A stretch of 64,000 bases of DNA from Candidatus Versatilivorator sp. GTDB taxonomy: Bacteria > Acidobacteriota > Terriglobia > Versatilivoradales > Versatilivoraceae. A model generated the notes under the pieces. The model had not been told where the DNA came from and searched no databases. It saw only the letters and a program-made list of their open reading frames with translations. The stretch lies in the NCBI GenBank assembly GCA_965207735.1, contig OZ242296.1, positions 1,120,001 to 1,184,000 on the forward strand. Reading direction: 5' to 3'. The number at the start of each line of letters is the position of its first letter. Position 1 is the stretch's first letter. The translations under genes and the position numbers were made by a program. Positions 1,181 through 22,587 of this stretch are shown piece by piece.

Positions 1181-1377
1181 GTGCGCCGCCGCGCCGTGCG
1201 AGGCGGGGACAGCGAGGCCGGCGCTGCACCGCGTAGTGCCGGGGAGCCAGCCTACCCAATGTAATACATTGGGGCTGGCGAGGGGCTCCGGCCCCTTCGA
1301 ACCCCGACCCCGGGGGAGTTCCCCCTGGCCCCCCAATCACCCCGCCCCCTTCCCCCTCTCCAGTTACGGAAACCTCG
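1181..1377. other. Candidate oriT/bom region of the ColE1-type mob cassette
   Basis: Immediately upstream of mobC; hairpin GCCAGC-cta-CCCAATGTA-A-TACATTGGG-GCTGGC (~1246-1279); minus strand has CTGGCT resembling the ColE1-family nic CTGG/CTTA; a second copy occurs at ~14632-15715. Confidence 0.6.
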
Positions 1378-1713
1378 ATGGCGCGAGAGGCGACAGCCAC
1401 GGTGCGGGTGTCGGCCGCCGAGCTGGCCGAGTGGCGCGGCAAGGCGCGGGCGGCCGGGGTGTCGCTGTCCGAGCTGCTGCGCCGGGCCATGGCGCGGACC
1501 CGGACCTGGACGGCTGCTGCTGCCGCCGTGGAGCGGGAGCGGACCCGGGAGCTGGCGCGGATCGGAAACAACCTGAACCAGATTGCGCGCTGGGCCAACA
1601 CCTACAAGCAGGGAGCCGAGGCAGTTGCCGTGGTGGCGCATCTGTCGGCCATCCAGCGGGCGCTCGATGCGCTGTCTGGAGTCCACAGGGGGAGAGAGAC
1701 CGATGCACGTTAA
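1378..1713 (+). CDS. mobC: Relaxosome accessory protein MobC/MbeC (ribbon-helix-helix)
   Basis: N-terminal RHH pattern (TVRVSAAELAEW..A..GVSLSELLR) and MobC signature ELARIGNNLNQIAR; overlaps the relaxase start. Confidence 0.9.
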   Translation: MAREATATVRVSAAELAEWRGKARAAGVSLSELLRRAMARTRTWTAAAAAVERERTRELARIGNNLNQIARWANTYKQGAEAVAVVAHLSAIQRALDALSGVHRGRETDAR

Positions 1714-3199
1714 GTTCCTCGCCCGGGGATCGGGATCGGCGGGGGCGGCGGCCGAGTACCTGCTGGAGGAGAGGAACGCGTCCGGGGAGGAGCGGGAAGA
1801 AGTCGAGGTGCTGCGGGGGGATCCGTGGCGGGTGGCGGAGGTGGCCGACAGCCTGGAGTTCGAGCACCGCTACACCTCGGGAGTGATCGCCTGGGCGCCG
1901 GAGGACGAGCCCAGCGATGACGAGATTGAGCAGACGCTGGATGAGTTCGAGCGCACGGCCTGGGCAGGGCTCGAGGAGGAGCGCTACGCCTGGTCGGCGG
2001 TGCTGCATCGGGAGACGGAAGGCGGCGTGCACGTGCATGTGCTGGCGGCGCGGTGTGATCTGGAGACCGGGAAGAGCCTGAATATCGCGCCGCCGGGATG
2101 GCAGAAGACCTTCGACGCGTTGCGGGACTCGCTCAATTACGAGCATGGGTGGAGCCGGCCGGACGATCCGGAGCGGGCGCGGGTGGTCCAGCCGGGGCAC
2201 CGGGCGGGGGTGGAGGCGACCCGGCTGCGGGCCGGACTTGCAGTCGAGCCCGAGCCGCGGGAGCTGATCCGGGACTACCTGGTTGAGAGGATCGAGAGCG
2301 AGGCCGTCCGGGACCGGGCCGGCGTTGTGGCGGCATTGCGGGAGGCGGGCCTGGAGGTGCCCCGCGAGGGGAAGCACTACATCACCGCTCGGGATCCGGA
2401 GAGCGGGTCCCGGTGGCGCTTGAAGGGGGCGATCTATGAAGCAGACTTCCAGCGCAGCCGGTTTGTCGGCCCGGCTGCGGCAGAAACTGGAGCAGGAGAG
2501 GCAAGAGATCGAGAGCGTGACCGGCAGCGAGCTGCGCAGGCTCGGAGAGAACTTGAGGCGCATCGCGAGCGAAGAGCGGCGTATCACCGAAGCCGCTACG
2601 GAGGAAGCGATCAGGCGGCTGCGCGGGATGTTGCTGTTGAGCTGGCTGCGGCCGCTGGTGATCGGAGTAGTGCTCTCGATCGGCATCTGCGTGGGGAGCT
2701 GGGGAACGATGCAGTGGTTGGGGCGGCAGATCCAGAGCCGGATAGAGACCAGGGCCTCCCTGGAGCTGGAGATCGAGCGGCAGCGGGAGACCGTGGAGCG
2801 GTTGAAGCAGAGCAGCTGGGGGATCCGGCTGCAGGAGTCTCCAAAGGGGCGGTTCGTGGTGCTGCCGCCGGGGACGCTGGACCATCCGCCCTGGAGAGTG
2901 GGCGGGAGGCCTGCCGTGAGGCTCTCGAAAAAGTGAGGGAGCTCTATGACCGAATTGGAACGGCAGTTGACGAAGGCCTTGCGAGAGTTGTCGGGGCAGT
3001 ACGAGCGGGAACAGAAGCAGCAGGCCGAGCGGGTCGAGGACTTGCGGCGGCAGGTCGAGCTGCTCGCAGGGCAAGTGCAGCTGTTGGCCCGGGACTACAG
3101 GAAGCTCGCCGGGACATTGCGCACTCACTGGAGGTGATGCGCCGGGCGGGGGAGGAGCGGTGGCGGGAGCGGAACCGAGGGATCGACCTTGGCCGCTAG
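1703..3199 (+). CDS. mobA: Relaxase, ColE1 MbeA/MobA-like (MOBP5-like) with 3H motif
   Basis: ATG at 1703: MHVKFLARGSGS..AEYLL (catalytic Tyr), YTSGVIAWA, LHRETEGGVHVHVL, DLETGKSLNIAPPGW, GWSRPDDPERAR. Confidence 0.9.
   Translation: MHVKFLARGSGSAGAAAEYLLEERNASGEEREEVEVLRGDPWRVAEVADSLEFEHRYTSGVIAWAPEDEPSDDEIEQTLDEFERTAWAGLEEERYAWSAVLHRETEGGVHVHVLAARCDLETGKSLNIAPPGWQKTFDALRDSLNYEHGWSRPDDPERARVVQPGHRAGVEATRLRAGLAVEPEPRELIRDYLVERIESEAVRDRAGVVAALREAGLEVPREGKHYITARDPESGSRWRLKGAIYEADFQRSRFVGPAAAETGAGEARDRERDRQRAAQARRELEAHRERRAAYHRSRYGGSDQAAARDVAVELAAAAGDRSSALDRHLRGELGNDAVVGAADPEPDRDQGLPGAGDRAAAGDRGAVEAEQLGDPAAGVSKGAVRGAAAGDAGPSALESGREACREALEKVRELYDRIGTAVDEGLARVVGAVRAGTEAAGRAGRGLAAAGRAARRASAAVGPGLQEARRDIAHSLEVMRRAGEERWRERNRGIDLGR
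2436..2936 (+). CDS. MbeB/MobB-like mobilisation protein nested in an alternative frame of the relaxase
   Basis: Coiled-coil N-terminus, one TM segment, C-terminal WGIRLQE..GRFVVLP; same nested position as ColE1 mbeB. Confidence 0.75.
   Translation: MKQTSSAAGLSARLRQKLEQERQEIESVTGSELRRLGENLRRIASEERRITEAATEEAIRRLRGMLLLSWLRPLVIGVVLSIGICVGSWGTMQWLGRQIQSRIETRASLELEIERQRETVERLKQSSWGIRLQESPKGRFVVLPPGTLDHPPWRVGGRPAVRLSKK
2946..3137 (+). CDS. MbeD/MobD-like protein nested within the relaxase gene
   Basis: MTELERQL..AL..L start typical of MbeD; short coiled coil directly after the mbeB-like ORF. Confidence 0.8.
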   Translation: MTELERQLTKALRELSGQYEREQKQQAERVEDLRRQVELLAGQVQLLARDYRKLAGTLRTHWR

Positions 3200-4431
3200 C
3201 TTCTCCGGGAGCGTACCGCATCCGACGATGCCCCTTGGGCCAGGTATCTCGCCCAATCGTCCATCAGGCGGCGCCGGCGCTCGAACAGGTCCGAGCGCCG
3301 GTAGGCGGCCTCGATCTGGTTGCGGACCTTGTGCGCCAGCGCCGCCTCCGCCACCTCTCGGGGATGATCCGTTTCCTCGGCCGCCCAGTCCCGAAACGAC
3401 GACCGGAACCCGTGGGGCACAGCCGCGATCTTCAACTCCCTGAGCAACTCCGACATCGCCGTGTTCCCGATCGGCTTTCCCCCTATGCTCGGAAACACCA
3501 GCGGGCTTCTGCGACCCAGCCTTCGCGCCTCAGCGAGAACCTCCAACGCACGCCCGCACAACGGCACCCGGTGCTCGCGGTTCCCCTTCGTGCGCGAGGC
3601 CGGAATGCTCCACACGCCCGCCTCCCGGTCGATCTCCTTCCAGGCCGCCCCACGGACCTCGCCCGAGCGTGCCGCCGTCAGCACCAGCAGCTCGAATGCC
3701 AGCTTCACTACCGGCCGCGCCTTCGACGCGCGCACCTTGCGGATCGCCTCCGCCACCTCACCATGCGGCAACGCCCGCATGTGACGCACGCCATTGCCCT
3801 GCAATCCCAGCACCGGGCCGATCCGGTCGCACGGGTTGTCGGGCCGCAGATCCATCGCCACTGCCCATTCCATGACCGCCCGGATGCGCTGGCGCAGTTT
3901 CCGGGCCGTCGCCGCCTTGCCGTGCCAGATCGGGGCCAGAATCCCGATCACGTCGGCGCTGGACACCTCGGAAACCGGCATCCCGCCGATGCGGGGCAAG
4001 GCGTGGCGCTTGAGGCTGCCCAGCCAGAGGTCGGCATGCTGGGGCGAACGCCAGCCCGGCCGCAGCTGCTTCCAGACCTGCCGGGTCGCGTCCGTGAAGG
4101 TGGGCGTCGACTCAGAGCGGCGCTTCTCCGACAGGGGATCGCCCCCCTCGCGGGCCAGCTTCCGGTTGGCGAAAGCCTTCTCCCGGGCTTCCTTCAGCGA
4201 AACCAGGGGGAAGCCGCCGAGCCCGAGCTCGGTGCGGCGGCCACGGATGGTGAGGCGCTGCACCCAGCCCCGGCTGCCCGTGGTTCGGACATCGAGATAG
4301 AGGCCCTGGCCGTCGCAGTAGCGTCCGGCGCGGCTGACGTTGCGCACGAAGGCGGGCGTGAGGTCGCTTTCGGGATGCTGGCCGCGCGGCTTGCGTTGCG
4401 GGGGGCGTTTGGCGAGTATCATACCCGCCAT
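3196..4431 (-). CDS. P4-like tyrosine integrase (int1, intact)
   Basis: Arm-binding N-terminus (DGQGLYL..WVQR..LGLGGFP.VSL.EAR), LTAARSGE, PHGFRSSFRDW, LAH, EAAY; likely start ATG 4431 or 4422. Confidence 0.95.
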   Translation of the reverse strand: MAGMILAKRPPQRKPRGQHPESDLTPAFVRNVSRAGRYCDGQGLYLDVRTTGSRGWVQRLTIRGRRTELGLGGFPLVSLKEAREKAFANRKLAREGGDPLSEKRRSESTPTFTDATRQVWKQLRPGWRSPQHADLWLGSLKRHALPRIGGMPVSEVSSADVIGILAPIWHGKAATARKLRQRIRAVMEWAVAMDLRPDNPCDRIGPVLGLQGNGVRHMRALPHGEVAEAIRKVRASKARPVVKLAFELLVLTAARSGEVRGAAWKEIDREAGVWSIPASRTKGNREHRVPLCGRALEVLAEARRLGRRSPLVFPSIGGKPIGNTAMSELLRELKIAAVPHGFRSSFRDWAAEETDHPREVAEAALAHKVRNQIEAAYRRSDLFERRRRLMDDWARYLAQGASSDAVRSRRS

Positions 4432-4948
4432 TATACCCCCATAAAATGATGGATGCAAGGGTACGGTGCGGACCGCTACGGGAAAAGGACGGATGCTCAA
4501 ATATAATTATAACTGGCAGTTATATAGACATTTATGGACATTACTGGACGTGGTTGGACGACCATCTCATTCTAAGTAAGGATTCCCTGCGGGAAGACGG
4601 AAGAGCCAATTTGGACCGAGATCGATAGGGAGGTGGTATGTTCCCAGAGAACCAGACCGGCTTTGAGGTCAGGGGTTCAATAGATTCTCGGCAGAACCTG
4701 TCCCACGACCAAGTAGTAGATTCAGGCTCGGATGGCCGAGAGGTGTCACTATGGGCGTGTAACCCTGGAGCTACCCCTGGCGATGAGTGGACAAATAAGC
4801 AAGAGCATTTATTGGCCAGCAGCGCGGGCGATGAGCGCGGGGTAAGTGGGGACGTTTCTCTTTGCGACAGTGATTAAAAAATGCTCATTCGTAGCGGAAG
4901 TTGAGGGGACGCAAGCCTGCCCGGCAAAGATCACGGATTGGGGGCAAC

Positions 4949-5525: not shown

Positions 5526-6335
5526 CTAGTTTAACGGTTGTTTGAGGTTTCGATGCGCTTCCTGGAGCCTGGCGGCAAGTTTCTGCGCCTCGCCTATTTG
5601 CTCGGCGGTCATCCTTGGTCTGAGCTCGTCCTTCAGCTTGAATGCTCTCTCGTCACCCTGGGCGGCGGCAAGAATGAACCAGGTGTAGCCTTGCATGTAG
5701 TCCTCCGGAACTCCCTCGCCTTTGGCGTACATGTCGCCCAACTCGTATTGTGCACTGGCATAGCCCTGCTCAGCGGCCAGCCGATACCACTTCACCGCCT
5801 CTTGGTGATTCTCAAGCAGCCCTCTGCCGTAGCGGTACATGAAGCCCAAGGCTGTTTGAGCCCTGGCGTGTCTCTGTTCGGCGGCTTGGCGGACCCACTT
5901 CACCCCTTTCCTGCTGTCCTTCGATACCCCCTTGCCAAGGAAGTACATGTGCCCCAGGGCGGTTTGAGCTTCGGCATCTCCCTGCTCGGCCGCTTTCCGG
6001 TACCACGTCGCTGCTTCTTGGTCGTCCTTCGGCACTCCCTCGCCGACGCGGTGCATATGGCCGAGATGGAGCTGAGCCCTGGCGAATCCTTGTTCGGCGG
6101 CTTGGCGGATCCACGTCGCGGCTTCCACGAGGTTCTCTGCTACCCCTTCGCCCCTGGCGTACATGCGGCCGAGCGTGAATTGCGCACTGGAATCTCCTTG
6201 TTCAGCGGCCTGGCGCAACTTTGTAATCTCCTGGTCCTCGGCGAGCCCAGGGCGAAACCCGGCCAGAACGACCACGGCAGCAAAGACAAGTATCGCCTGC
6301 CGTCGGCAAGTATTTCGGTTGGTCGTGATTTCCAT
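5526..6335 (-). CDS. Sel1-like repeat protein, exported
   Basis: About five repeats of AAEQG.A.AQ..LG.MY..G.GV; N-terminal hydrophobic signal. Confidence 0.92.
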   Translation of the reverse strand: MEITTNRNTCRRQAILVFAAVVVLAGFRPGLAEDQEITKLRQAAEQGDSSAQFTLGRMYARGEGVAENLVEAATWIRQAAEQGFARAQLHLGHMHRVGEGVPKDDQEAATWYRKAAEQGDAEAQTALGHMYFLGKGVSKDSRKGVKWVRQAAEQRHARAQTALGFMYRYGRGLLENHQEAVKWYRLAAEQGYASAQYELGDMYAKGEGVPEDYMQGYTWFILAAAQGDERAFKLKDELRPRMTAEQIGEAQKLAARLQEAHRNLKQPLN

Positions 6336-6806
6336 CGCACACTCCCATAGCTTGTTCAAATCTGGGTCTCAATAACGTTTGAGACAACTCACTCAGCCAT
6401 GTTCTTCGGAGTTGTTCTGGCGAGTCGATCACGTTCGAATCGGAGGATTTCTTGAATGCGGTCCAGTCCCTTTTCGTTTGACTCTCTCAACAGAACTGCC
6501 CTGAAGCTGGCCACACTCAGCCGTCTCTGCATCACGACAAGTCCTGATTCGTTACCTGGACATCAATTTGACGGATCGGCGCCGGCATATTCAGGCGAAC
6601 GTCTCTCAGCTAAAATTCGACCTAAAGCTCCTGGGCGGGTCGAAATTCTCCCAAGCGGTCCTCCGCGTTCTCGATCAGGGAAATGAACGGGGAGAGCAGA
6701 CTAGGGGTTCGGCTCAAATGCTACGCATGAGGCGCCCGCCGTCGCTCTCCATACCTGAGTGCCAGTTCGTCCACGGCATTGGCTCCTCCTCAAGGCCAAT
6801 TCATCA

Positions 6807-9503
6807 TCAGTTCGCCGCCGACAACGTCACCAGGGATTCCTGCACCGTCTGACCCGGTGAAAGCTCGATCCGCTTCGAATCCTTTGTCAGGCTTCTCAGG
6901 TAGTCAGGATCCCACTCATTCCCGGTTTGGTGATCGACCAGGGCGCACACCAGATACTTCCCCGGGACCAGTCCTTCCAATGAATAATATCCGCTCTGGT
7001 CCGTCTGAGTTGTCCGGGTGAAGCGCGAGGGGTAATCCCTGCGTTGGAGGTCGGCGGAAAAGACCAGGACTGTCGCCCCCGTCGCCACTGCCCGCTCTTC
7101 CGCCTGTTCGACACGACCATTAATCCGAGCACCCTGGGACGAAATGTGAATCTCCATCCCATCCAGGCGGTCATTGCTTTTCAGCACTATCGGACGATCC
7201 GTGATGTCCTGACCGTCGACACGGATGGAGGAGATATAGTGATTCCCCGGAGGGAGCCTGACCATCAAGTGATAGGAGCCCTCGGGATGGTTCGCAATCT
7301 TAAAGGTGAGATCCTCTTCGATTGAGGCCCTGATGCCACCGAAGGACAGTCGATTGAGGTTATCCCTTGATGGGGACATACCTAACGAGATCCGGCGCCA
7401 ATCCAGGTCGGCCCGCTCACCGTCCACCAGGATTCTGCCGGTGATGTCGGTCCCCTTGGCAAGCATCAAGGTCAAGCCGCTCTGATCCTGGTCCACCACC
7501 TCCACGTCCGCAGTGGCCAGCTGCTGGTCCTCGCCGCTCCCCGAACGGGCGTAGAGACGATATCCGCCGGGAAGAAGACCCGAAACCTTGAATTGGCCCT
7601 TCAGATCCGTGGTCGTGTTCTGTCGCATCCCGATGTTGATTTCCTTGCCCGACTGCTTCATGGATACGATCCAAGCCGAATAAGCCGGCTTGCCTTCCGG
7701 CGTCAGCACCCGGCCGCTGACGCTGTAACTGGAACCCTCGATCACGGTGATATTGAAGCCTCCGGCTTCTTCTCCTGCAGTCATCTTGATCGTGGCTGCT
7801 TCCTCGACGCTCAGGACTCCAGGGTAGTAGGTCGGCGCGAACGACCGCATCGGTCTCCGCGAGTCGCCAAATAGGGGACGAGGGGACACTCGCAGGTAGT
7901 AGTCGCCAGGGGGGACGCCGAAGATGCGAAAGTACCCCCGGTCATCGGTCTCGTCGTGTCCGGAAGGCAGCAAGCGGTCCTTGCCTCCCAGGCTCCGCAT
8001 AACCCTCAAACGGACGGCAACCCGCTCCACAGGTTCCTTGTCCTGGTCCACCACCCTGCCTTCCACGACGCCGCCTCGGATGAGACTGAAGTCAATGTTC
8101 TCCACGACTTGTCCGGGACCGATCGTCAGCGCGGTACCGACACTGTCTATTCTCAAGCTATAGGCGGTCTTTTGGCCGTAGTTGCGGGGAAGGTAGCCGT
8201 GTCGGGTTGCCCTCAGGGTGTACTGACCCGGGTCAAGGTCTTTGAATGTGTACTGGCCGCTGCTATCGGTCCGTACGGTTCGGGGCGGGTCGTGACGGGG
8301 TGCGGTCTTCGAACGGAGCGAGAGTGTGGCTTTGGCCAACGGATGGCCACTGTCTTCTGCGACGACCTTTCCTTGGATCCCACCGGGAATTCGGTCCTCA
8401 GTTTCCAGACCGGGCGGCGTGCTCCAGGCAGCGTAGGCATCCCAGTTCACAAGGCCTGTGCCCACAGAGAAGATGGACAAACCCGCCACAAATCCAATTA
8501 TCAAGGCCCATTCAAGGACGCCGAGTTTTCGTGGCAGTCCGGTCGACAGGAGGTGGACCATCCGTCTTTTGAGGCTTGAACCGCCAATGGAAGAGGTTCC
8601 CACCAGCCGCTGTTCCACACACGCCCTGACAACCTTCAAGATTCCCGAGATGTAAGTTTCGGGGGATTGCCTGATCCGCAAGACTTCTTCATCGCAGGCC
8701 CGCTCCCGCTCCTCAAACAACTTCCTGTCGATGAGCCATACAAGGGGATAAAACCACAGCAGTGCAAAGATGACTTTTTGTAGAACGGCGGCGAGGTTGT
8801 CCCTGCGCTTCACATGAAGCAGCTCGTGGAGTATGACCGCTTCGAGTTCCTCATCGCTCAAGCGGCTTGCGGCTCCTTCAGGTAACAGAACCGTGGGTCT
8901 CCAAATACCCCAAAGTCCTGCTTCTGTGACTTTGTCTGAGACGAGGAGGACAACGTCCTGTTTCAACTGAAGCTGGGAGCGGACCCGCTTCAGGATCTCC
9001 GTTTCTCTCGAAGAGGCGATCCGGTGGCTGGTCCTAACGGCCCGAGCTAAACTCAGAGAGCCTTTGGCCCAGCGAACAACAAAGAACAGGAACCCCGCGA
9101 GCCAAGTCAGCGTGAGCGTGCAATAAAGTTCGTTGTGGGCGGCAGTGGATACAGGTTGAGCCACGGGCGGCGGACTCAGGAGCAATGGCCGGAGGATTTC
9201 ATAGACGGGTCTTGCCGGGGCGGAAGTTAACGCCCCGTGGTTTGTTTGTTCCAGGGGCGGAGGAGTTAATGCTGGTCCTTCACCAGGAATTTCCGATACC
9301 ATCCATACCAACAGGAAAGAGGGAACGACCAGCTTGACCGCAGCCAGCAGCCAGAACCAGTAGCGGGTGCTTGCCGGCGCTCGCTTGAGCAAGCGGATAC
9401 CCAAAGCCAGCAATCCAATAAAGAGCGCTGCCTCCCAAAGATGCACCACAAGGTTGGGCCATAGCCAAGAAGACCACTCTGACAGCCATGAATGCATGTT
9501 CAT
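6807..9503 (-). CDS. BlaR1/MecR1-like M56 metallopeptidase with C-terminal carboxypeptidase-regulatory-like beta-sandwich domains
   Basis: HELLHVKRRD zinc motif, ERERACDE, TM helices; repeated G.V.G.V.D..G.P / TD..G.Y.F..L.PG.Y domains; AGGAGG RBS before ATG 9503. Confidence 0.9.
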   Translation of the reverse strand: MNMHSWLSEWSSWLWPNLVVHLWEAALFIGLLALGIRLLKRAPASTRYWFWLLAAVKLVVPSFLLVWMVSEIPGEGPALTPPPLEQTNHGALTSAPARPVYEILRPLLLSPPPVAQPVSTAAHNELYCTLTLTWLAGFLFFVVRWAKGSLSLARAVRTSHRIASSRETEILKRVRSQLQLKQDVVLLVSDKVTEAGLWGIWRPTVLLPEGAASRLSDEELEAVILHELLHVKRRDNLAAVLQKVIFALLWFYPLVWLIDRKLFEERERACDEEVLRIRQSPETYISGILKVVRACVEQRLVGTSSIGGSSLKRRMVHLLSTGLPRKLGVLEWALIIGFVAGLSIFSVGTGLVNWDAYAAWSTPPGLETEDRIPGGIQGKVVAEDSGHPLAKATLSLRSKTAPRHDPPRTVRTDSSGQYTFKDLDPGQYTLRATRHGYLPRNYGQKTAYSLRIDSVGTALTIGPGQVVENIDFSLIRGGVVEGRVVDQDKEPVERVAVRLRVMRSLGGKDRLLPSGHDETDDRGYFRIFGVPPGDYYLRVSPRPLFGDSRRPMRSFAPTYYPGVLSVEEAATIKMTAGEEAGGFNITVIEGSSYSVSGRVLTPEGKPAYSAWIVSMKQSGKEINIGMRQNTTTDLKGQFKVSGLLPGGYRLYARSGSGEDQQLATADVEVVDQDQSGLTLMLAKGTDITGRILVDGERADLDWRRISLGMSPSRDNLNRLSFGGIRASIEEDLTFKIANHPEGSYHLMVRLPPGNHYISSIRVDGQDITDRPIVLKSNDRLDGMEIHISSQGARINGRVEQAEERAVATGATVLVFSADLQRRDYPSRFTRTTQTDQSGYYSLEGLVPGKYLVCALVDHQTGNEWDPDYLRSLTKDSKRIELSPGQTVQESLVTLSAAN

Positions 9504-9547
9504 GAGAGATTGTCCTCCTTTCCTGCTTGCCAACTCCTGCTCAGGAT

Positions 9548-9967
9548 TCACTCGGTTTTTGGATCCACAGCGGTGGTGCTGTCACGACGGGTCTTTCTTT
9601 TCCGGAGGATCCTTTCCAGGTCCCGCAGGTCATCCAGGGTCAGTTTGCCTGTATCCGCCAGATGGGACATCACAGGCTGGGGTGAACCGCTGAACAACTC
9701 CAGAAAATCGTCCACCAGACGGCGGTAGGCCTGCGCGCGTGTAATGACTGGGACAAAGACATAGGCATTCCCGATCTTTCGCTGTTTCCGCAGAGCTCCC
9801 TTTGCCTCCAGGCGTAAGACCAGCGTCTGGACCGTCGTATAGGCGAGAGTCTTCCTTACAGGGAGTTGCTCCAGTACTTCCCTGATGGATGCCCTGCCGA
9901 GATTCCAGAGCGCTTCCATCGCCTTGAGCTCAAGAGGCGACAGTTTGATATTGTTCCTCTGTGTCAA
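9548..9967 (-). CDS. BlaI/MecI/CopY family repressor
   Basis: LSPLELKAMEALW, LAYTTVQTLVLRLEAKG, FSGSPQPVMSHL; TTG start after AGGAGG; directly upstream of the M56 gene. Confidence 0.9.
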   Translation of the reverse strand: MTQRNNIKLSPLELKAMEALWNLGRASIREVLEQLPVRKTLAYTTVQTLVLRLEAKGALRKQRKIGNAYVFVPVITRAQAYRRLVDDFLELFSGSPQPVMSHLADTGKLTLDDLRDLERILRKRKTRRDSTTAVDPKTE

Positions 9968-9980
9968 GAAAACACCTCCT

Positions 9981-10622
9981 TCAACTATTATCGCTGAGAA
10001 CAGGACTCGTGTTGGTGATCGTGTAGTCTTCCGGAATCGCAAAGACCGACGCACTCGGTTCCCCCTGCCGGAAGTCGAAGAATTCCACGATCCGACGGGT
10101 CCCACCAGGAAGGGTGAAGTCTGTTTTGACGACAAGCTGCAGGTCCTCGGAAAACCAGGAGGACGAACCGGGCGCCAACTGGCCATTCACGAAGACCGGC
10201 TTGCCCACGCACTCCACGCCATTGATGACTCGTCTGCCCAGGGTTTCCGATTCCGGTGGAACCCTGTAGGGAGAGGGCAGGAGCGGAAGCGGCAACTTTC
10301 TCATGAGCCGTGCGGTCTTCCGATCATGATTGATGAGATACACGTTGCCGGTGGCGGCATCCTTGAAATGCGCTCGTCCCTTCGGCTGTCCATCCTCGAC
10401 GCTGATCCGGGACCTCATCTCCGAACCTAAAGAAGCACGAAACAGCACACCGTTGGCCTCTTCCAGCAGTTCCTCCGAACCATCCGGCAGCGTTCGATAA
10501 GTAAGCTCTTTGAATTGAGCTGTTACGGGGAGCCACTGTCCTCGCAGCATCAGGGGAACGGTCAACCCGAAAGCAAGTGTGACGCAAACCGGCAGCAATC
10601 GGCTATTTGTCTTCCTATTCAT
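9981..10622 (-). CDS. Exported hypothetical protein
   Basis: GGAGG RBS, signal-like N-terminus, LGRRVINGVEC.G and EPSASVFAIPEDY motifs. Confidence 0.7.
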   Translation of the reverse strand: MNRKTNSRLLPVCVTLAFGLTVPLMLRGQWLPVTAQFKELTYRTLPDGSEELLEEANGVLFRASLGSEMRSRISVEDGQPKGRAHFKDAATGNVYLINHDRKTARLMRKLPLPLLPSPYRVPPESETLGRRVINGVECVGKPVFVNGQLAPGSSSWFSEDLQLVVKTDFTLPGGTRRIVEFFDFRQGEPSASVFAIPEDYTITNTSPVLSDNS

Positions 10623-13896: not shown

Positions 13897-14317
13897 GGCC
13901 TTCCCGCCAGGGATCACTGTTGAGAGAGCGACCTCCCCAAAAGGGGGGCAAAGGGCCGACACCTTTGCCGACACCTTTTCCCGCGCCCGTGGCGCACCAG
14001 CGGGGAAAAAGGGGGGGTCGCTCTCTCCACCAGCACCCCTCTCGTGCGGCGCGCCGTTTCGCCGGGCGAGGGGGGGACACGCGAGGCGCAGCCTCGCTTC
14101 GCCTTTTCGCAGCGGACGCGGGAAATCCGTGTTGTTCCGCGTCTGATGAGGCGTTTCGGGAAAGTCACGAACCACAACGGCGAGGGAGCGCCCTCTGAGA
14201 GAAAGACGTTGTACGTAGCAGGATCTCCGACATGTTAGTCCGACACCCCCCCTTCGGAAAGGTGTCGGCCCATCTGACGACACCGCCTTGACCCCCAGAG
14301 TCGGAAATCGTCGATCA
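13897..14317 (-). repeat. Conserved non-coding module, copy B (CCGACACC octamers)
   Basis: Reverse homologue of 11204-11630; IR at 13922-13933/14016-14027; GGCCGACACCTTT at 13954 and its complement at 14258. Confidence 0.75.
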
Positions 14318-14631
14318 TTTCGCGGCCGGTGGAGGTTGGCGTTTCCTGGTCCCATTGGTCGATCTTCTCCATGACGACACTGAGGCCGGCGTGGCGTTCG
14401 ACGGTGTCCTGTCCCCTGAATCCGCGAGCTTTGCCGGGCAGGCTGGACTTTCTCACTCTCTGGCATACCAGAACTCCCCGAAACGCCTCCTGGACCGATT
14501 CCGCTCTCAGAGACCGCAGGTCTCGCCGCCTGTGGGGAAATCGGAATGGCCGGCCCCGACAGTGAACCGCACTGGGGCGTGGTCGCAATTCGGTCTCGGC
14601 CAACCGTCCCTCCACCTGCACCCCTCTCGCA

Positions 14632-15715
14632 CGGCGCGCCGCCGCGCGAGGCGGGGACAGCGGGGCCGGCGCCGCACCGCGTAGTGCCGGGGAGCCAGCC
14701 TACCCAAGTAGAGTCGAGGACTGGCGCGTTGACTATAGGGTCCGGTGGCTATTCCGTCGCTTTCGCTTCGGGCCTCAGTCCGGCTCCCCTATCACGTTTC
14801 CAGTCCCCGCTCTCCGAACCGGACGTGCGGTTTTCCCGCGTCTCGGCTCTCCAGTGGGATCATGCATCTCGCACACAGGTCCCCGGTCGCATTCGTGGAC
14901 GACTCCTGCGGGATTGGCACCCTCCCCTACTCCATCCACTTCCGCTCCCGGGTTGCCGCCAGGCCTGTTGACGCCCTGACGACGCCGGCGTCCTCCGCCG
15001 ACCCCTTCACTTTTGGATGTGATGCTTCCGGAGTCTCCGGTCCTTTTGCCGGGGTTTCAGGCTTTCGCCACTCCCGAGACCCTTCCCCCTTCGGTCACCG
15101 CTCCTCACCTGAGGCCCCTTCCCTCCACGGGCGTTACCCCGCTTCTCCAGTACTACAGGCCTCTCCGCCACCCTGCAGGCCCGGCCTGCCCCTCGCGGGG
15201 TCCCGGTTGATGTGTGCCACATCTCCCCCAGGGCTTCCCGTGTTGCCACCTTCTTCCCCTTCCATGCGTGCCAGCGTCATTACCCCGACGGAAACGGATC
15301 GGTGCCCGCGTCGCTCACTTCCCCATCCGCCAACGGCCTTCCCCTAATTACAGGAGGGTCGGCTTCCGTATCGCCCTGTTTCGAGGCCTGCTCGACGTTC
15401 ACTCGCGTTCCGGCCCGCATGGTCGCTGAACCGCCTCAGAGCGGCCCTTTGTCACCAGAGTGCTTCAGACCATTTCGTTACCTCCATGATCCGCCCTGGC
15501 TGCTACCAACCGGAGCGACAGTTGTTGGGCGGGGTTCGCACCCGCCGGAAGAAGGCGCCTTTCCACGGCGCACTGTAATACATTGGGGCTGGCGAGGGGC
15601 TCCGGCCCCTGCGAACCCCCGACCCGGCGGGAGCGCTCCCCTGGCCCCCCCATCACCCCCGCCGCTCCCTTCTCCCTCTCCCATGACGGAGGCCTCGATG
15701 GCGCCAGAAGCGACG
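14632..15715. other. Second oriT-like region interrupted by a group II intron and followed by a few-codon mobC stub
   Basis: 14632-14707 plus 15574-15715 closely match 1181-1395, including CCTCGATGGCG at the mobC start. Confidence 0.7.
14708..15573 (-). ncRNA. ORF-less group II intron (866 nt)
   Basis: 5' end GTGCG, 3' end CTCTAC; domain V GAGCCG-AGAC-GCGG-GAAAA-CCGC-AC-GTC-CGGTTC (~14816-14850); EBS1 UGUAAU (15347-15352) complementary to IBS1 AUUACA; precise insertion without target duplication compared with the empty site at 1259/1260. Confidence 0.92.
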
Positions 15716-15727
15716 GGGAAGTTTTCG

Positions 15728-16094
15728 ACCACAACGGCGAGGGGGGCGCCCTCTGAGAGAAAAGCGTTGGGGGTGGTGAAGTCACGCGCCACCCCTGTGC
15801 GCCACCAGGGCTTTTTGGGTGGCGCGTTGGTCCGACTCCACCGCCTTGACTCCCAGAGGCGGAAATCGTCGATCAGTCCTCGGCCGTTCGAGGCCGGGTT
15901 CTCCTGCTCCCATTGGACGATCTTCTCCATGACGACATCGACGCTGGCGTGGCGTTCGATGGTGTCCTGACCCCCCTGAATCCGCGAGATTTGCCGGGCA
16001 GGCTGCCATTTCCAAGCCCCTGGCATGCCAGAGCATCCCGGAACCCGTTCCTGGACCGATGTTCCTCTCAGGGACCGCAGGTCCCGCCGCCTGT
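15728..16094. repeat. Diverged direct repeat of 14171-14533 (GCGCCACC octamers)
   Basis: Shared blocks ACCACAACGGCGAGGG, CCGCCTTGAC.CCCAGAG, GATCTTCTCCATGACGAC, CTGAATCCGCGAG, GACCGCAGGTC. Confidence 0.8.
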
Positions 16095-20889: not shown

Positions 20890-22587
20890 CCCGCATTTCT
20901 CACCAGAGTTCGCACAGGAGCGGTAAAAGGGGCCATGGAGGCATTTGAGGCCGAGTTTAACAACGTTGGTGGCTGGATCGGTAGGCAAAGGCCAACAGCG
21001 GAGGCTTCTGAGGCTCTCCGAGGAACCTCAGGCGGCATTTTCCCTCGAAAACAGCGACACCTCTGCCATCGGGCCTGGTGGCCGCGTCTTCAAGGGCCAG
21101 GAGTGACGGTCGGGTCAGGGCACCTCAGGGCGGCAGGTGAGCCCAAGCGATGCGGAACTCCCTCTGGTAAGGACATCCGGAAGCCATGGCGACCTTGATG
21201 CGACGGACCGAGATGGTGACCTGAGCGCCGATCTTGAGCAGTTTGAGTCTGATGGAACCGACGGTGGCCCGGGCCAGGCAGGTGGATTGCAGCGCCCGCC
21301 GGCGCAAGCCCTCCACCAGCACATAGGCGAAAGAGGTCATCAGGAGCCGGAGCTGATTCGCCCGGAAGGAGTGGGTGGAGGTGCGATCGGCAAACAGGTC
21401 GAGTTGCTGCTCCTTGATGCGGTTTTCCATCTCACCGCGGGCACAGTAGATCTTCTCATAGAGGAACTGGGCGGGGTAGTCCTGGACCGACAGAGAGGTG
21501 ACGACGAAGCGGGGGTTGGGGCCGCGGGGCAGGACCTCGGCTTTGGCGACCAGGCGGCGCTCGTGGGACCAGCTCTTGTGAGTGCGGTAGGAGAGGTCGG
21601 TGAAGATCCGGGCGGGCTGCTGTTGCTGGTCTGAGAGGGCCTGGGCCTGAGCCAACTCGGGGGCGATGGCGTCTTGGAGGCGGGAGTTGCGGGCCAGGCC
21701 GAAGAGATAGTCGACCTGATGCTGCTCACACCACCCCATCAGCTCCTCACGGGCAAAGCCGGAGTCGGCCCGCAGCAGGATCTTGACCTGAGGCCAGACA
21801 CGCCGTAGGCGGGAGACGATGCGCTGGACCTGCTCCAGAGCGCCGGCGGAGGCATCGATGTTGGCGGGTCTGAGCAGGGCCGAGAGCAGATGGCGGCCCG
21901 AGAAGATGTAGAGGGGCAGGTAGCAGTAGCCTCGGTAGTAGCCGTGGAAGAAGCGGTCCTCTTGTTCCCCGTGGAGGGGATCGTCAGTGGCGTCGAGGTC
22001 GAGGATGATCTCATCGGGGGGTTGGGGATGGGCTTGCAGAAACAGTTTCACCAGGAGGGCTTGCAAGGCCTCGGGGTCGTGGTCAATCTTGTGGTAGCGG
22101 GTGGGGCCTTGGGTGGGGGCGTGTTCGAGTCGGTTGAGGGTGCTCTTGCCTGCCAGGGGAGGCGAGTCGCCACGACGGCCTTTCTCTGAAAACAAGGCCA
22201 TGAGGGGATCGTGACGGAGTTGGTCGTGGTCGATGAGATCCTCGTAGCCGAGGGCGATGCCACGGATGCGCTGAGCGATGAGGGTGCGCAGGCTGTATTG
22301 GGTCCGCTTGGGGTCGCGGTGATCGGTGAAACAGTCGGCCACCTGGTCGGAGAGAGATAAGCCCCGATCCACCCGGCGCAACAGCAGGGAGCCGGCATCG
22401 GAAGTGATGGGACCGCCGTCGAAATCAGCCACCACGCGGCGGCGGCCGTGGGGTTCAAACTCCAGGGGTTTGGTGTTACACTGTGTCGGCATCGGTTCTC
22501 CTTTAAGAATCTGGTTAACTCCTTAGACAAGAGTATTTTACCAGATTCCGAGAACCGATGCTTCCTACCTCTGGTGAGAAATGCGGG
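20890..22587 (-). mobile_element. IS1380-family insertion sequence
   Basis: Perfect 19-bp terminal IR CCCGCATTTCTCACCAGAG; CTAG target duplication at 20886-20889 and 22588-22591. Confidence 0.93.
21125..22492 (-). CDS. IS1380 transposase
   Basis: FDGGPITSDAG, LDLDATDDPLHGEQE, LRADSGF, Y.ARGEMENRIKEQQ. Confidence 0.95.
   Translation of the reverse strand: MPTQCNTKPLEFEPHGRRRVVADFDGGPITSDAGSLLLRRVDRGLSLSDQVADCFTDHRDPKRTQYSLRTLIAQRIRGIALGYEDLIDHDQLRHDPLMALFSEKGRRGDSPPLAGKSTLNRLEHAPTQGPTRYHKIDHDPEALQALLVKLFLQAHPQPPDEIILDLDATDDPLHGEQEDRFFHGYYRGYCYLPLYIFSGRHLLSALLRPANIDASAGALEQVQRIVSRLRRVWPQVKILLRADSGFAREELMGWCEQHQVDYLFGLARNSRLQDAIAPELAQAQALSDQQQQPARIFTDLSYRTHKSWSHERRLVAKAEVLPRGPNPRFVVTSLSVQDYPAQFLYEKIYCARGEMENRIKEQQLDLFADRTSTHSFRANQLRLLMTSFAYVLVEGLRRRALQSTCLARATVGSIRLKLLKIGAQVTISVRRIKVAMASGCPYQREFRIAWAHLPP

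Follow-up and report, generated by a model that had tools for sequence, protein, structure and literature searches.

An ORF-less group II intron in an oriT-like hairpin of Candidatus Versatilivorator, with a targeting domain probably acquired by recombination

The stretch of DNA analyzed here (the window) comprises 64,000 nucleotides of Candidatus Versatilivorator sp. (assembly GCA_965207735.1, contig OZ242296.1, positions 1,120,001 to 1,184,000 of the forward strand); the source genome, G000, is a single contig of 5.26 Mb. Near its start, the window carries a mobilization module that adjoins an integrase gene and is preceded by an oriT-like hairpin, and about 13 kb further on an intron without an ORF lies in a second copy of this hairpin (Table 1). 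Island cargo in between includes a Sel1-repeat gene (5526-6359) and a BlaR1-like M56 peptidase that has carboxypeptidase-regulatory repeats and adjoins a BlaI-type repressor (6807-10186). An imperfect direct repeat of approximately 260 nt (14273-14533 and 15831-16094, 81-84% alike) brackets the filled oriT unit, which suggests tandem accretion of island remnants.

Table 1. Positions in the window of the intron, its target and the associated genes
Feature	Position	Strand	Remarks
Empty oriT-like site	1246..1299	-	Long hairpin at 1246-1279, with the target junction at 1259/1260 and the nic predicted at 1246/1247
mobC (PF05713, NikA-like)	1378..1713	+	Sole intact copy found in the genome
MOBP5-type relaxase	1703..3199	+	HxH rather than HEN motif; sole copy found in the genome
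P4-type tyrosine integrase	3196..4500	-	Adjoins the mob module; domain search
3' exon	14632..14707	-	Contains the proximal hairpin arm of the oriT; nic CTGG^CT predicted between 14695 and 14694 by ColE1 analogy
ORF-less group IIB intron	14708..15573	-	GUGCG...AC, 866 nt; flank comparison, Rfam
Long domain VI	14708..14815	-	Predicted bulged branch A at 14714; folding
Domain V	14816..14849	-	AGC triad and AC bulge; Rfam alignment, folding
Shrunken domain IV	14850..15110	-	Keeps a remnant of the IEP N-terminus, in register, at 15066-15028
Crossover zone (intron nt 398-411)	15163..15176	-	Informative sites switch from RT-encoding sibling to ORF-less lineage
Intron 5' part (nt 1-400)	15174..15573	-	Domains I-II by inference; 98.5% identity to RT-encoding oriT sibling G000:C1:4589468
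Inferred EBS3 (A294)	15280	-	Pairs with T, +1 of the 3' exon
EBS1 UGUAAU, d3 loop	15347..15352	-	6/6 pairs with IBS1 ATTACA
EBS2 position UACGGA	15365..15370	-	3/6 pairs with CCAATG, as read from the sequence
5' exon	15574..15715	-	Comprises IBS1 (15574-15579), the distal hairpin arm of the oriT, a small GC hairpin and about 6 truncated-mobC codons (+)
IS1380-family element	20890..22587	-	The 28 sister ORF-less introns target such terminal repeats; here, neither end is filled

An earlier note on this DNA had described a group II intron without a reverse transcriptase (RT) ORF, inserted exactly at a target that is also present empty in the window, and had cited its termini, a canonical domain V and a UGUAAU motif complementary to the last six bases of the 5' exon; each of these features was borne out. 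The empty-site sequence CCTACCCAA/TGTAATACATTGGGG is located at 1251-1274, and the flanks 14699-14707 and 15574-15588 reproduce it with 866 nt in between and no duplication; to one side, likeness between the filled and the empty site extends for approximately 75 nt, and to the other for 140 nt. Read on the minus strand, the insert begins with GTGCG and ends with AC, in agreement with the group II ends GUGYG and AY. The covariance models proposed in the note gave a domain I match to group-II-D1D4-4 (RF02003; 77 bits, gathering score 49), a partial match to RF02005 (31.1 bits) and a match of domains V-VI to Intron_gpII that lies slightly below its gathering score (36.4 bits against 40, E 3.4e-5) and in whose alignment domain VI carries a long insertion. 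Domain V, its AC bulge and the bulged A seven bases before the end fold as expected. The UGUAAU motif occupies the d3 loop, and position 294, which we read as EBS3, mostly covaries with the +1 base across the intron family, with exceptions. At the EBS2 position, the IS-targeting type of this family forms all six pairs (UGCGGG with CCCGCA), whereas the oriT-type copy forms three. Class C (IIC), with its short EBS1, missing EBS2 region and sites downstream of terminator stem-loops, was ruled out by the six-base EBS1, the presence of an EBS2 region and the insertion inside a hairpin arm; the long domain VI and the CUCGACUCUAC end resemble those described for class F.

No Pfam match was obtained in the four ORFs searched that overlap the insert, and no sigma-70-like promoter was found near the intron. 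The ESLKPRQKDRRLRK stretch (15066-15028), in which the earlier note saw a possible vestige of an intron-encoded protein (IEP) N-terminus, begins at intron nt 508, the very coordinate that KGLTGSERVRKLQT, at the N-terminus of its IEP, has in the RT-encoding sibling. In this region, the DNA alignment with the sibling stays in register for approximately 135 nt, with 1 of 200 shuffles scoring equally; a tblastn search of the IEP against domain IV gave no significant protein match. Given the shared coordinate, the alignment in register and the shuffles, the reading as a vestige is reasonable.

The mobilization module next to the empty site resembles that of ColE1. MobC shares 38% identity with ColE1 MbeC over 98 columns and 35% with its pAsal1 counterpart; the relaxase shares 33% with MbeA over 292 columns and 42% with the pAsal1 protein, and it matches the MbeA model NF047848 with an E value of 2.9e-29, below the model cut-off. 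Similarity searches with the relaxase return mobilizable ColE1-like plasmids; its closest relative (97%) belongs to Candidatus Versatilivoraceae, and most others come from metagenome-assembled genomes (MAGs) of Gemmatimonadota and Acidobacteriota. The empty site lies approximately 120 nt upstream of mobC and the relaxase gene, and on the strand opposite the mob genes it presents, in order, a small hairpin, GCCAGCC, an inner palindrome and GTAGGCTGG^CT. This frame is also present in pAsal1 and other plasmids, and ColE1 shares the CTGG^CT context, which we take to be the ColE1 nic and from which, by analogy, the nic position is predicted here. Among 80 relaxase loci, 67 had a scored mobC together with 300 nt upstream, and in 59 of these the antisense strand upstream of mobC contained GCCAG...GCTGG^CY (controls, 0); a looser version of the motif was present in four of five plasmid stretches, and blastn of the oriT against plasmids produced short, weak matches only. 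The accessible sections of PMC9282650, PMC5935869 and PMC12857230 do not print the ColE1 nic sequence. With the motif upstream of mobC at most of these loci, the hairpin, which the earlier note had called oriT-like, is very likely an origin of transfer of the ColE1/MOBP5 kind.

Against a single mobC-relaxase pair, G000 contains 21 such oriT-like sites, of which 3 are filled, 12 are empty with an exact IBS1 and the other 6 show a loop variant disrupting IBS1. Twenty of the 21 lack an intact adjoining mobC or relaxase gene, and many lie beside pieces of P4-type integrases; these 20 copies are likely a family of non-autonomous mobilizable islands that use the single relaxase in trans. Matching empty sites also occur in two further genomes, G026 (12) and G027 (8). 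In the filled copy, the intron lies in the 3' arm of the hairpin, on the strand predicted to be nicked and 13 nt ahead of the predicted nic, and it destroys the long hairpin (folding z of -4.1 for the empty hairpin and -0.04 for the filled junction). A rescue hairpin between the intron 3' end and the remaining arm was ruled out, the pairing being no better than that of shuffles. The filled copy is without mobC and relaxase in cis and keeps about six mobC codons.

The three filled sites of G000 are occupied at the same base by the ORF-less copy of the window, by an RT-encoding sibling and by a 117-nt remnant (G000:C1:4260992-4261108), which still lies in an oriT, keeps both intron ends with a 3' end of the ORF-less type and was formed by deletion at a short GGA/CGGA microhomology. 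Across the genus, the 3' junction is present in 2 of 14 genomes, and in G023 a 1921-nt intron of the same targeting type, with a damaged ORF, occupies this base as a fourth insertion. Likeness among the four filled sites amounts to 70-93% in the flanks and to 95-100% in the shared intron parts; since the flanks differ more than the introns, the four insertions are independent, and the homing to a non-coding transfer origin that the earlier note had proposed is accordingly recurrent. EBS3 in the G023 copy is still a G facing T, whereas A is found in each of the two intact G000 copies, a difference suggestive of a stepwise adaptation to this site.

Assembled reads are in line with this recurrence. 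In run X8, a 129-nt contig bridges the ORF-less 3' end and the oriT exon (55 and 74 nt on either side, 3 differences); run X7, whose bridging contig has 30 flank letters, looks like the same data set filed twice, and the two were counted once. Contigs of the DNA-like runs X1 and X4 contain the joined 14707/15574 form, which the many empty origins explain, and the assembled contigs of RNA run X13 include intron-like sequences and no exon joint. A chance junction was ruled out by its identical occurrence three times in G000 and once in another species, and an assembly chimera by the differences of this copy from both parents and the return of the junction at a second locus and in another run. 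The sequence ATTACA/T occurs 78 times in G000 and 15 times in an oriT, and all three insertions are in an oriT (approximately 0.006 in a simple draw). Sites therefore appear to be selected beyond EBS1 and EBS3, for which IEP contacts, the purging of insertions in genes or the relaxosome could be responsible.

The genome holds 29 complete ORF-less copies of this intron family and, among the RT-encoding relatives that the earlier note had suggested looking for, 15 copies, one of which is frameshifted, in addition to fragments. The sibling IEP (455-459 aa) passes TIGR04416 and stops after the maturase region, so that the endonuclease domain is absent. Three targeting types can be distinguished. 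Type A (loop UGAGAAAU) occupies terminal repeats of IS1380-family elements and of their miniatures, with 28 ORF-less copies and one full copy; of the ORF-less ones, 22 are identical and the remainder at least 99.6% alike, in different flanks. Type B (loop UGUCUUUA) comprises 13 full copies, most of which lie in a dispersed CACGAAG repeat. Type C (loop UGUAAUUA) consists of the copy at 14708-15573, the full copy at 4589468 and, as judged by its flanks, the remnant at 4261108, all three at one base of one hairpin. A common target for the other copies, on which the homing proposal of the earlier note depended, thus holds for the three G000 copies at the oriT base but not for most of the family, which resides in IS1380 ends or the other dispersed repeat.

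Several further elements were observed alongside this family. The type B target is an A-rich dispersed repeat with tandem CACGAAG units (ATCCACGAAGGGGCACGAAG...) at more than 200 sites in G000, and it also takes IS1380 insertions. A fourth intron type (loop UGUUAAUA) was present in sequences of other species, L130, L139, L140, L143, L160, L173 and L175, with two head-to-tail copies in L140; its target, CCCATCTTTAACA, is probably another IS terminal repeat. Two RT genes of approximately 320 aa in G000 (C1:3462635-3463159 and 4583245-4583715) are unrelated to the intron family; a distance of 6 kb separates the latter gene and the full copy of type C.

The intron in the window is a mosaic. Up to nt 398, its informative sites agree with the full type C copy, and from nt 411 onwards with the ORF-less type: identity to the RT-encoding sibling is 98.5% over nt 1-400 and 74.3% over domains V-VI, against 86.0% and 98.2%, respectively, to the ORF-less IS type. 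The exact donor of the 3' half was not found among the copies compared, local IS-type copies reaching 94.5% and a G027 copy 95.1%. Sampling of the genus covered 61 stretches from its other genomes, against 88 intron starts listed for these genomes, and the trees were built from 36 distinct complete introns among 68 parsed rows after partial, nested and unparsed rows had been dropped. In the tree of the 5' part, the copy of the window and the full type C copy group as a pair (100/98), and both main clades contain ORF-less copies; in the tree of domains V-VI, every ORF-less copy belongs to a single clade from which all full copies are separate (100/100). The two halves conflict with full support, which indicates that across the genus one ORF-less chassis carries targeting domains of types A, B and C. 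It is therefore likely, from these comparisons, that the intron acquired its oriT target by recombination, that is, by a domain swap, with the direction of transfer deduced from the same data.

We consider it probable that the element at 14708-15573 is an ORF-less intron at an oriT of the ColE1/MOBP5 type that gained its target from an RT-encoding sibling by recombination and moves by fork-dependent retrohoming with a borrowed RT. Starting from what is directly seen, namely the anatomy, the EBS1 and EBS3 match, the recurrence at one base, the mosaic and the RT siblings without an endonuclease domain, the course of events might be as follows. A full-length lineage would have moved from another dispersed repeat to the oriT hairpin through two EBS1 changes and then the change of EBS3 from G to A, and its domains I-II would have been taken over by the ORF-less chassis, with the crossover at nt 398-411. 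Read-through transcription would be followed by splicing with the sibling IEP; the lariat would then reverse-splice into the ATTACA/T strand, most likely when this strand is exposed at a replication fork, and the nascent strand would prime cDNA synthesis. The landing site offered by the oriT would be multicopy and non-essential, on integrase-linked islands that may now and then bring the intron to a new cell. As the hairpin is split 13 nt from the predicted nic, the oriT is probably weakened.

The strand bias of the sister types bears on this route. Filled type A sites lie on the lagging-strand template in 26 of 30 cases, compared with 43 of 124 empty sites (p 2.4e-7, origin placed at dnaA); the counts are 24 of 30 and 46 of 124 with the origin placed by skew, and 18 of 21 and 23 of 72 in unambiguous regions. 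The corresponding figures are 10 or 11 of 13 for type B and 2 or 3 of 3 for type C, in which three copies are too few to reveal a bias of their own (Fisher p 0.5-1). The cumulative GC skew of G000 has its minimum at 4.51 Mb, with dnaA at 3.54 Mb and a flat stretch from 2.75 to 4.5 Mb, a shape that suggests recent inversions. We count the identity or near-identity of the 28 ORF-less sisters in different flanks as evidence of mobility in trans. According to the accessible text of PMC4615759, the endonuclease-minus introns RmInt1 and RmInt2 likewise prefer the lagging-strand template.

The earlier note had suggested that the intron possibly exploits nicked or single-stranded DNA at the oriT, a suggestion that our results do not support. 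MobC and the relaxase might melt the oriT, or the T-strand might be single-stranded during mobilization, so that the intron reverse-splices into the trailing end of the T-strand and is copied in complementary-strand synthesis, possibly in the recipient. It is true that all four insertions, 13 nt away from the predicted nic, are on the strand expected to be nicked, with an IEP lacking an endonuclease domain and with the oriT preferred over 63 other ATTACA/T sites despite poor EBS2 pairing; in addition, a relaxase stimulates Ll.LtrB retrotransposition, as stated in the part of PMC4256276 that was available. However, the choice of strand is already explained by EBS1 alone, the opposite strand reading AATACA with one mismatch. 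The predicted nic lies within the 3' exon on the intron's own strand, where its 3'-OH cannot prime cDNA synthesis, and this is the wrong strand for the published model, in which, according to the same excerpt of PMC4256276, the relaxase helps through off-target nicks on the bottom strand, from which priming takes place. Moreover, the sister types follow the replication fork as ordinary endonuclease-minus introns do, the profile search of G000 gave neither a coupling protein (PF02534) nor a VirB4-type ATPase (PF03135), and G023, despite its filled site, gave no match to the 1703-3199 relaxase. Together, the strand bias, the EBS1-based choice of strand and these negative searches favor fork-dependent retrohoming in trans. 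The weak EBS2 and a choice of sites narrower than EBS1 and EBS3 predict leave some room for help from the relaxosome, which we nevertheless regard as unlikely. We are similarly doubtful of an extended form of this idea, in which a lineage specialized on the oriT would take the MOBP5 strand as opened or transferred by the relaxosome, would ride the trailing end of the T-strand by virtue of its place 13 nt before the nic and would pass this address to a protein-less passenger through the swap of domain I.

Conversion in place would dispense with the mobility of the ORF-less copy altogether: a full-length intron would have homed to the oriT and then recombined with an ORF-less copy, leaving a stranded relic that was never itself mobile. 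The single intact ORF-less oriT copy in G000 does lie within a decayed island with a truncated mobC, and the empty twin site 13 kb away stays unfilled. Nevertheless, we find this course quite improbable, as the same ORF-less 3' end recurs in the 117-nt remnant at a second site with different flanks and in an allele with other bases in run X8, a second crossover would have to fall within approximately 11 shared terminal bases, and domain V and the branch site are intact. Still harder to credit is that the hairpin is not an oriT and represents instead an att arm, or a mobC promoter or operator, of the integrase islands. Such a reading would suit the 20 of 21 copies that lie near integrase pieces without an intact mobC or relaxase gene alongside, and the position of the nic is a prediction by analogy; yet the motif tracks the relaxase family, replicating plasmids such as pAsal1 included, aligns with the ColE1 CTGG^CT context and shares with ColE1 its location on the strand opposite to that of the mob genes. 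An ORF-less intron that homes in trans to an oriT at the replication fork therefore remains our preferred explanation.

For a wider view, 401 genomes of the phylum were scanned with a loose junction pattern; 10 matches lay outside G000, compared with 7 for reversed-pattern controls, and none had domain V upstream. Metagenome scans produced 0 matches to the 5' junction and 15 to the loose 3' junction, none with domain V; four more relaxase-bearing genomes yielded two matches, both in a tandem repeat; and 3 of the 80 relaxase loci held intron DNA, none of it in an oriT. Homing to the oriT is thus confined to one genus among the sequences searched. A related 1988-nt RT-encoding intron lies on the sense strand inside a MOBP5-family relaxase gene of a Longimicrobiales MAG (L079:3680-5667), with an EBS1 GGUAGU that matches ACTACC; the same mob module has therefore been struck in its gene by one lineage and in its origin by another.

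It is established that ORF-less introns can be moved by sibling IEPs and retargeted into mobile DNA (PMC2882425, available sections). The TeI3 introns of Thermosynechococcus elongatus, as described in the same sections (Mohr et al. 2010, PMC2882425), resemble the present family in their many ORF-less copies beside ORF-containing ones, their families with different EBS sets, the mobilization of ORF-less copies by a sibling IEP, insertion into other mobile elements and ORF remnants in domain IV; the oriT type itself has one intact ORF-less copy and one remnant, and its sisters 28 copies. In the TeI3 families, however, a single ORF deletion was followed by divergence through EBS change, and the IEPs contain an endonuclease domain, whereas here one ORF-less 3' chassis is joined to several types of domain I, the IEP lacks that domain and one target is oriT-like. 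RmInt1 and RmInt2 of Sinorhizobium meliloti share with the present introns an endonuclease-minus IEP, the lagging-template bias, tolerance of EBS2 mismatches, partly exchangeable IEPs and, comparable with the 28 sister copies, IS inverted repeats as a multicopy target, but they are described as class D introns that contain an ORF and target IS elements rather than a transfer origin (PMC4615759, in part). Bacterial endonuclease-minus introns of class F and of the g1-g6 groups likewise combine a IIB-type RNA with an RT/maturase without an endonuclease domain (Toro and Martinez-Abarca 2013, PMC3552965, in part). Ll.LtrB in the pRS01 relaxase gene is also a group II intron tied to a mobilization region (Novikova et al. 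2014, PMC4256276, in part); unlike the present intron, which occupies a non-coding origin on the predicted nicked (top) strand, it is a IIA intron with an endonuclease and lies inside the relaxase coding sequence. The target region has its counterparts in the mbeC-mbeA-oriT arrangement of ColE1/MOBP5 and in Aeromonas pAsal1, with homologous proteins, a mobC that overlaps the relaxase start and a hairpin with CTGG^CT on the strand opposite the mob genes; it differs from both in being chromosomal and integrase-linked, in its HxH motif in place of HEN and in the 20 further oriT-like copies without a relaxase.

Among the matches listed in open-licence full texts, supplements apart, we found no report of a group II intron inserted in an oriT, although tables of intron databases could list one; natural swapping of domain I, or chimeric or mosaic introns, likewise went unreported in the open-licence full texts searched. 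The contexts given in the available part of a 2025 introduction (PMC12584367) are IS, transposon, plasmid, terminator and start/stop codon, with no mention of oriT, and the word oriT is absent from a neighborhood survey (PMC7306698). A non-coding origin of transfer would thus be a new class of target beside IS elements, terminators, start and stop codons and relaxase genes. If the route through the replication fork is correct, the biology amounts to a neat variation on hiding in mobile DNA and not to a new mechanism. The mosaic offers a clean natural case of retargeting by exchange of a whole targeting domain, with one ORF-less chassis at three addresses in one genus. The 866-nt RNA, a sibling IEP, one relaxase and both empty and filled origins in one genome form a compact set with which to probe whether a relaxosome helps or blocks retrohoming, the question raised by the work on Ll.LtrB.
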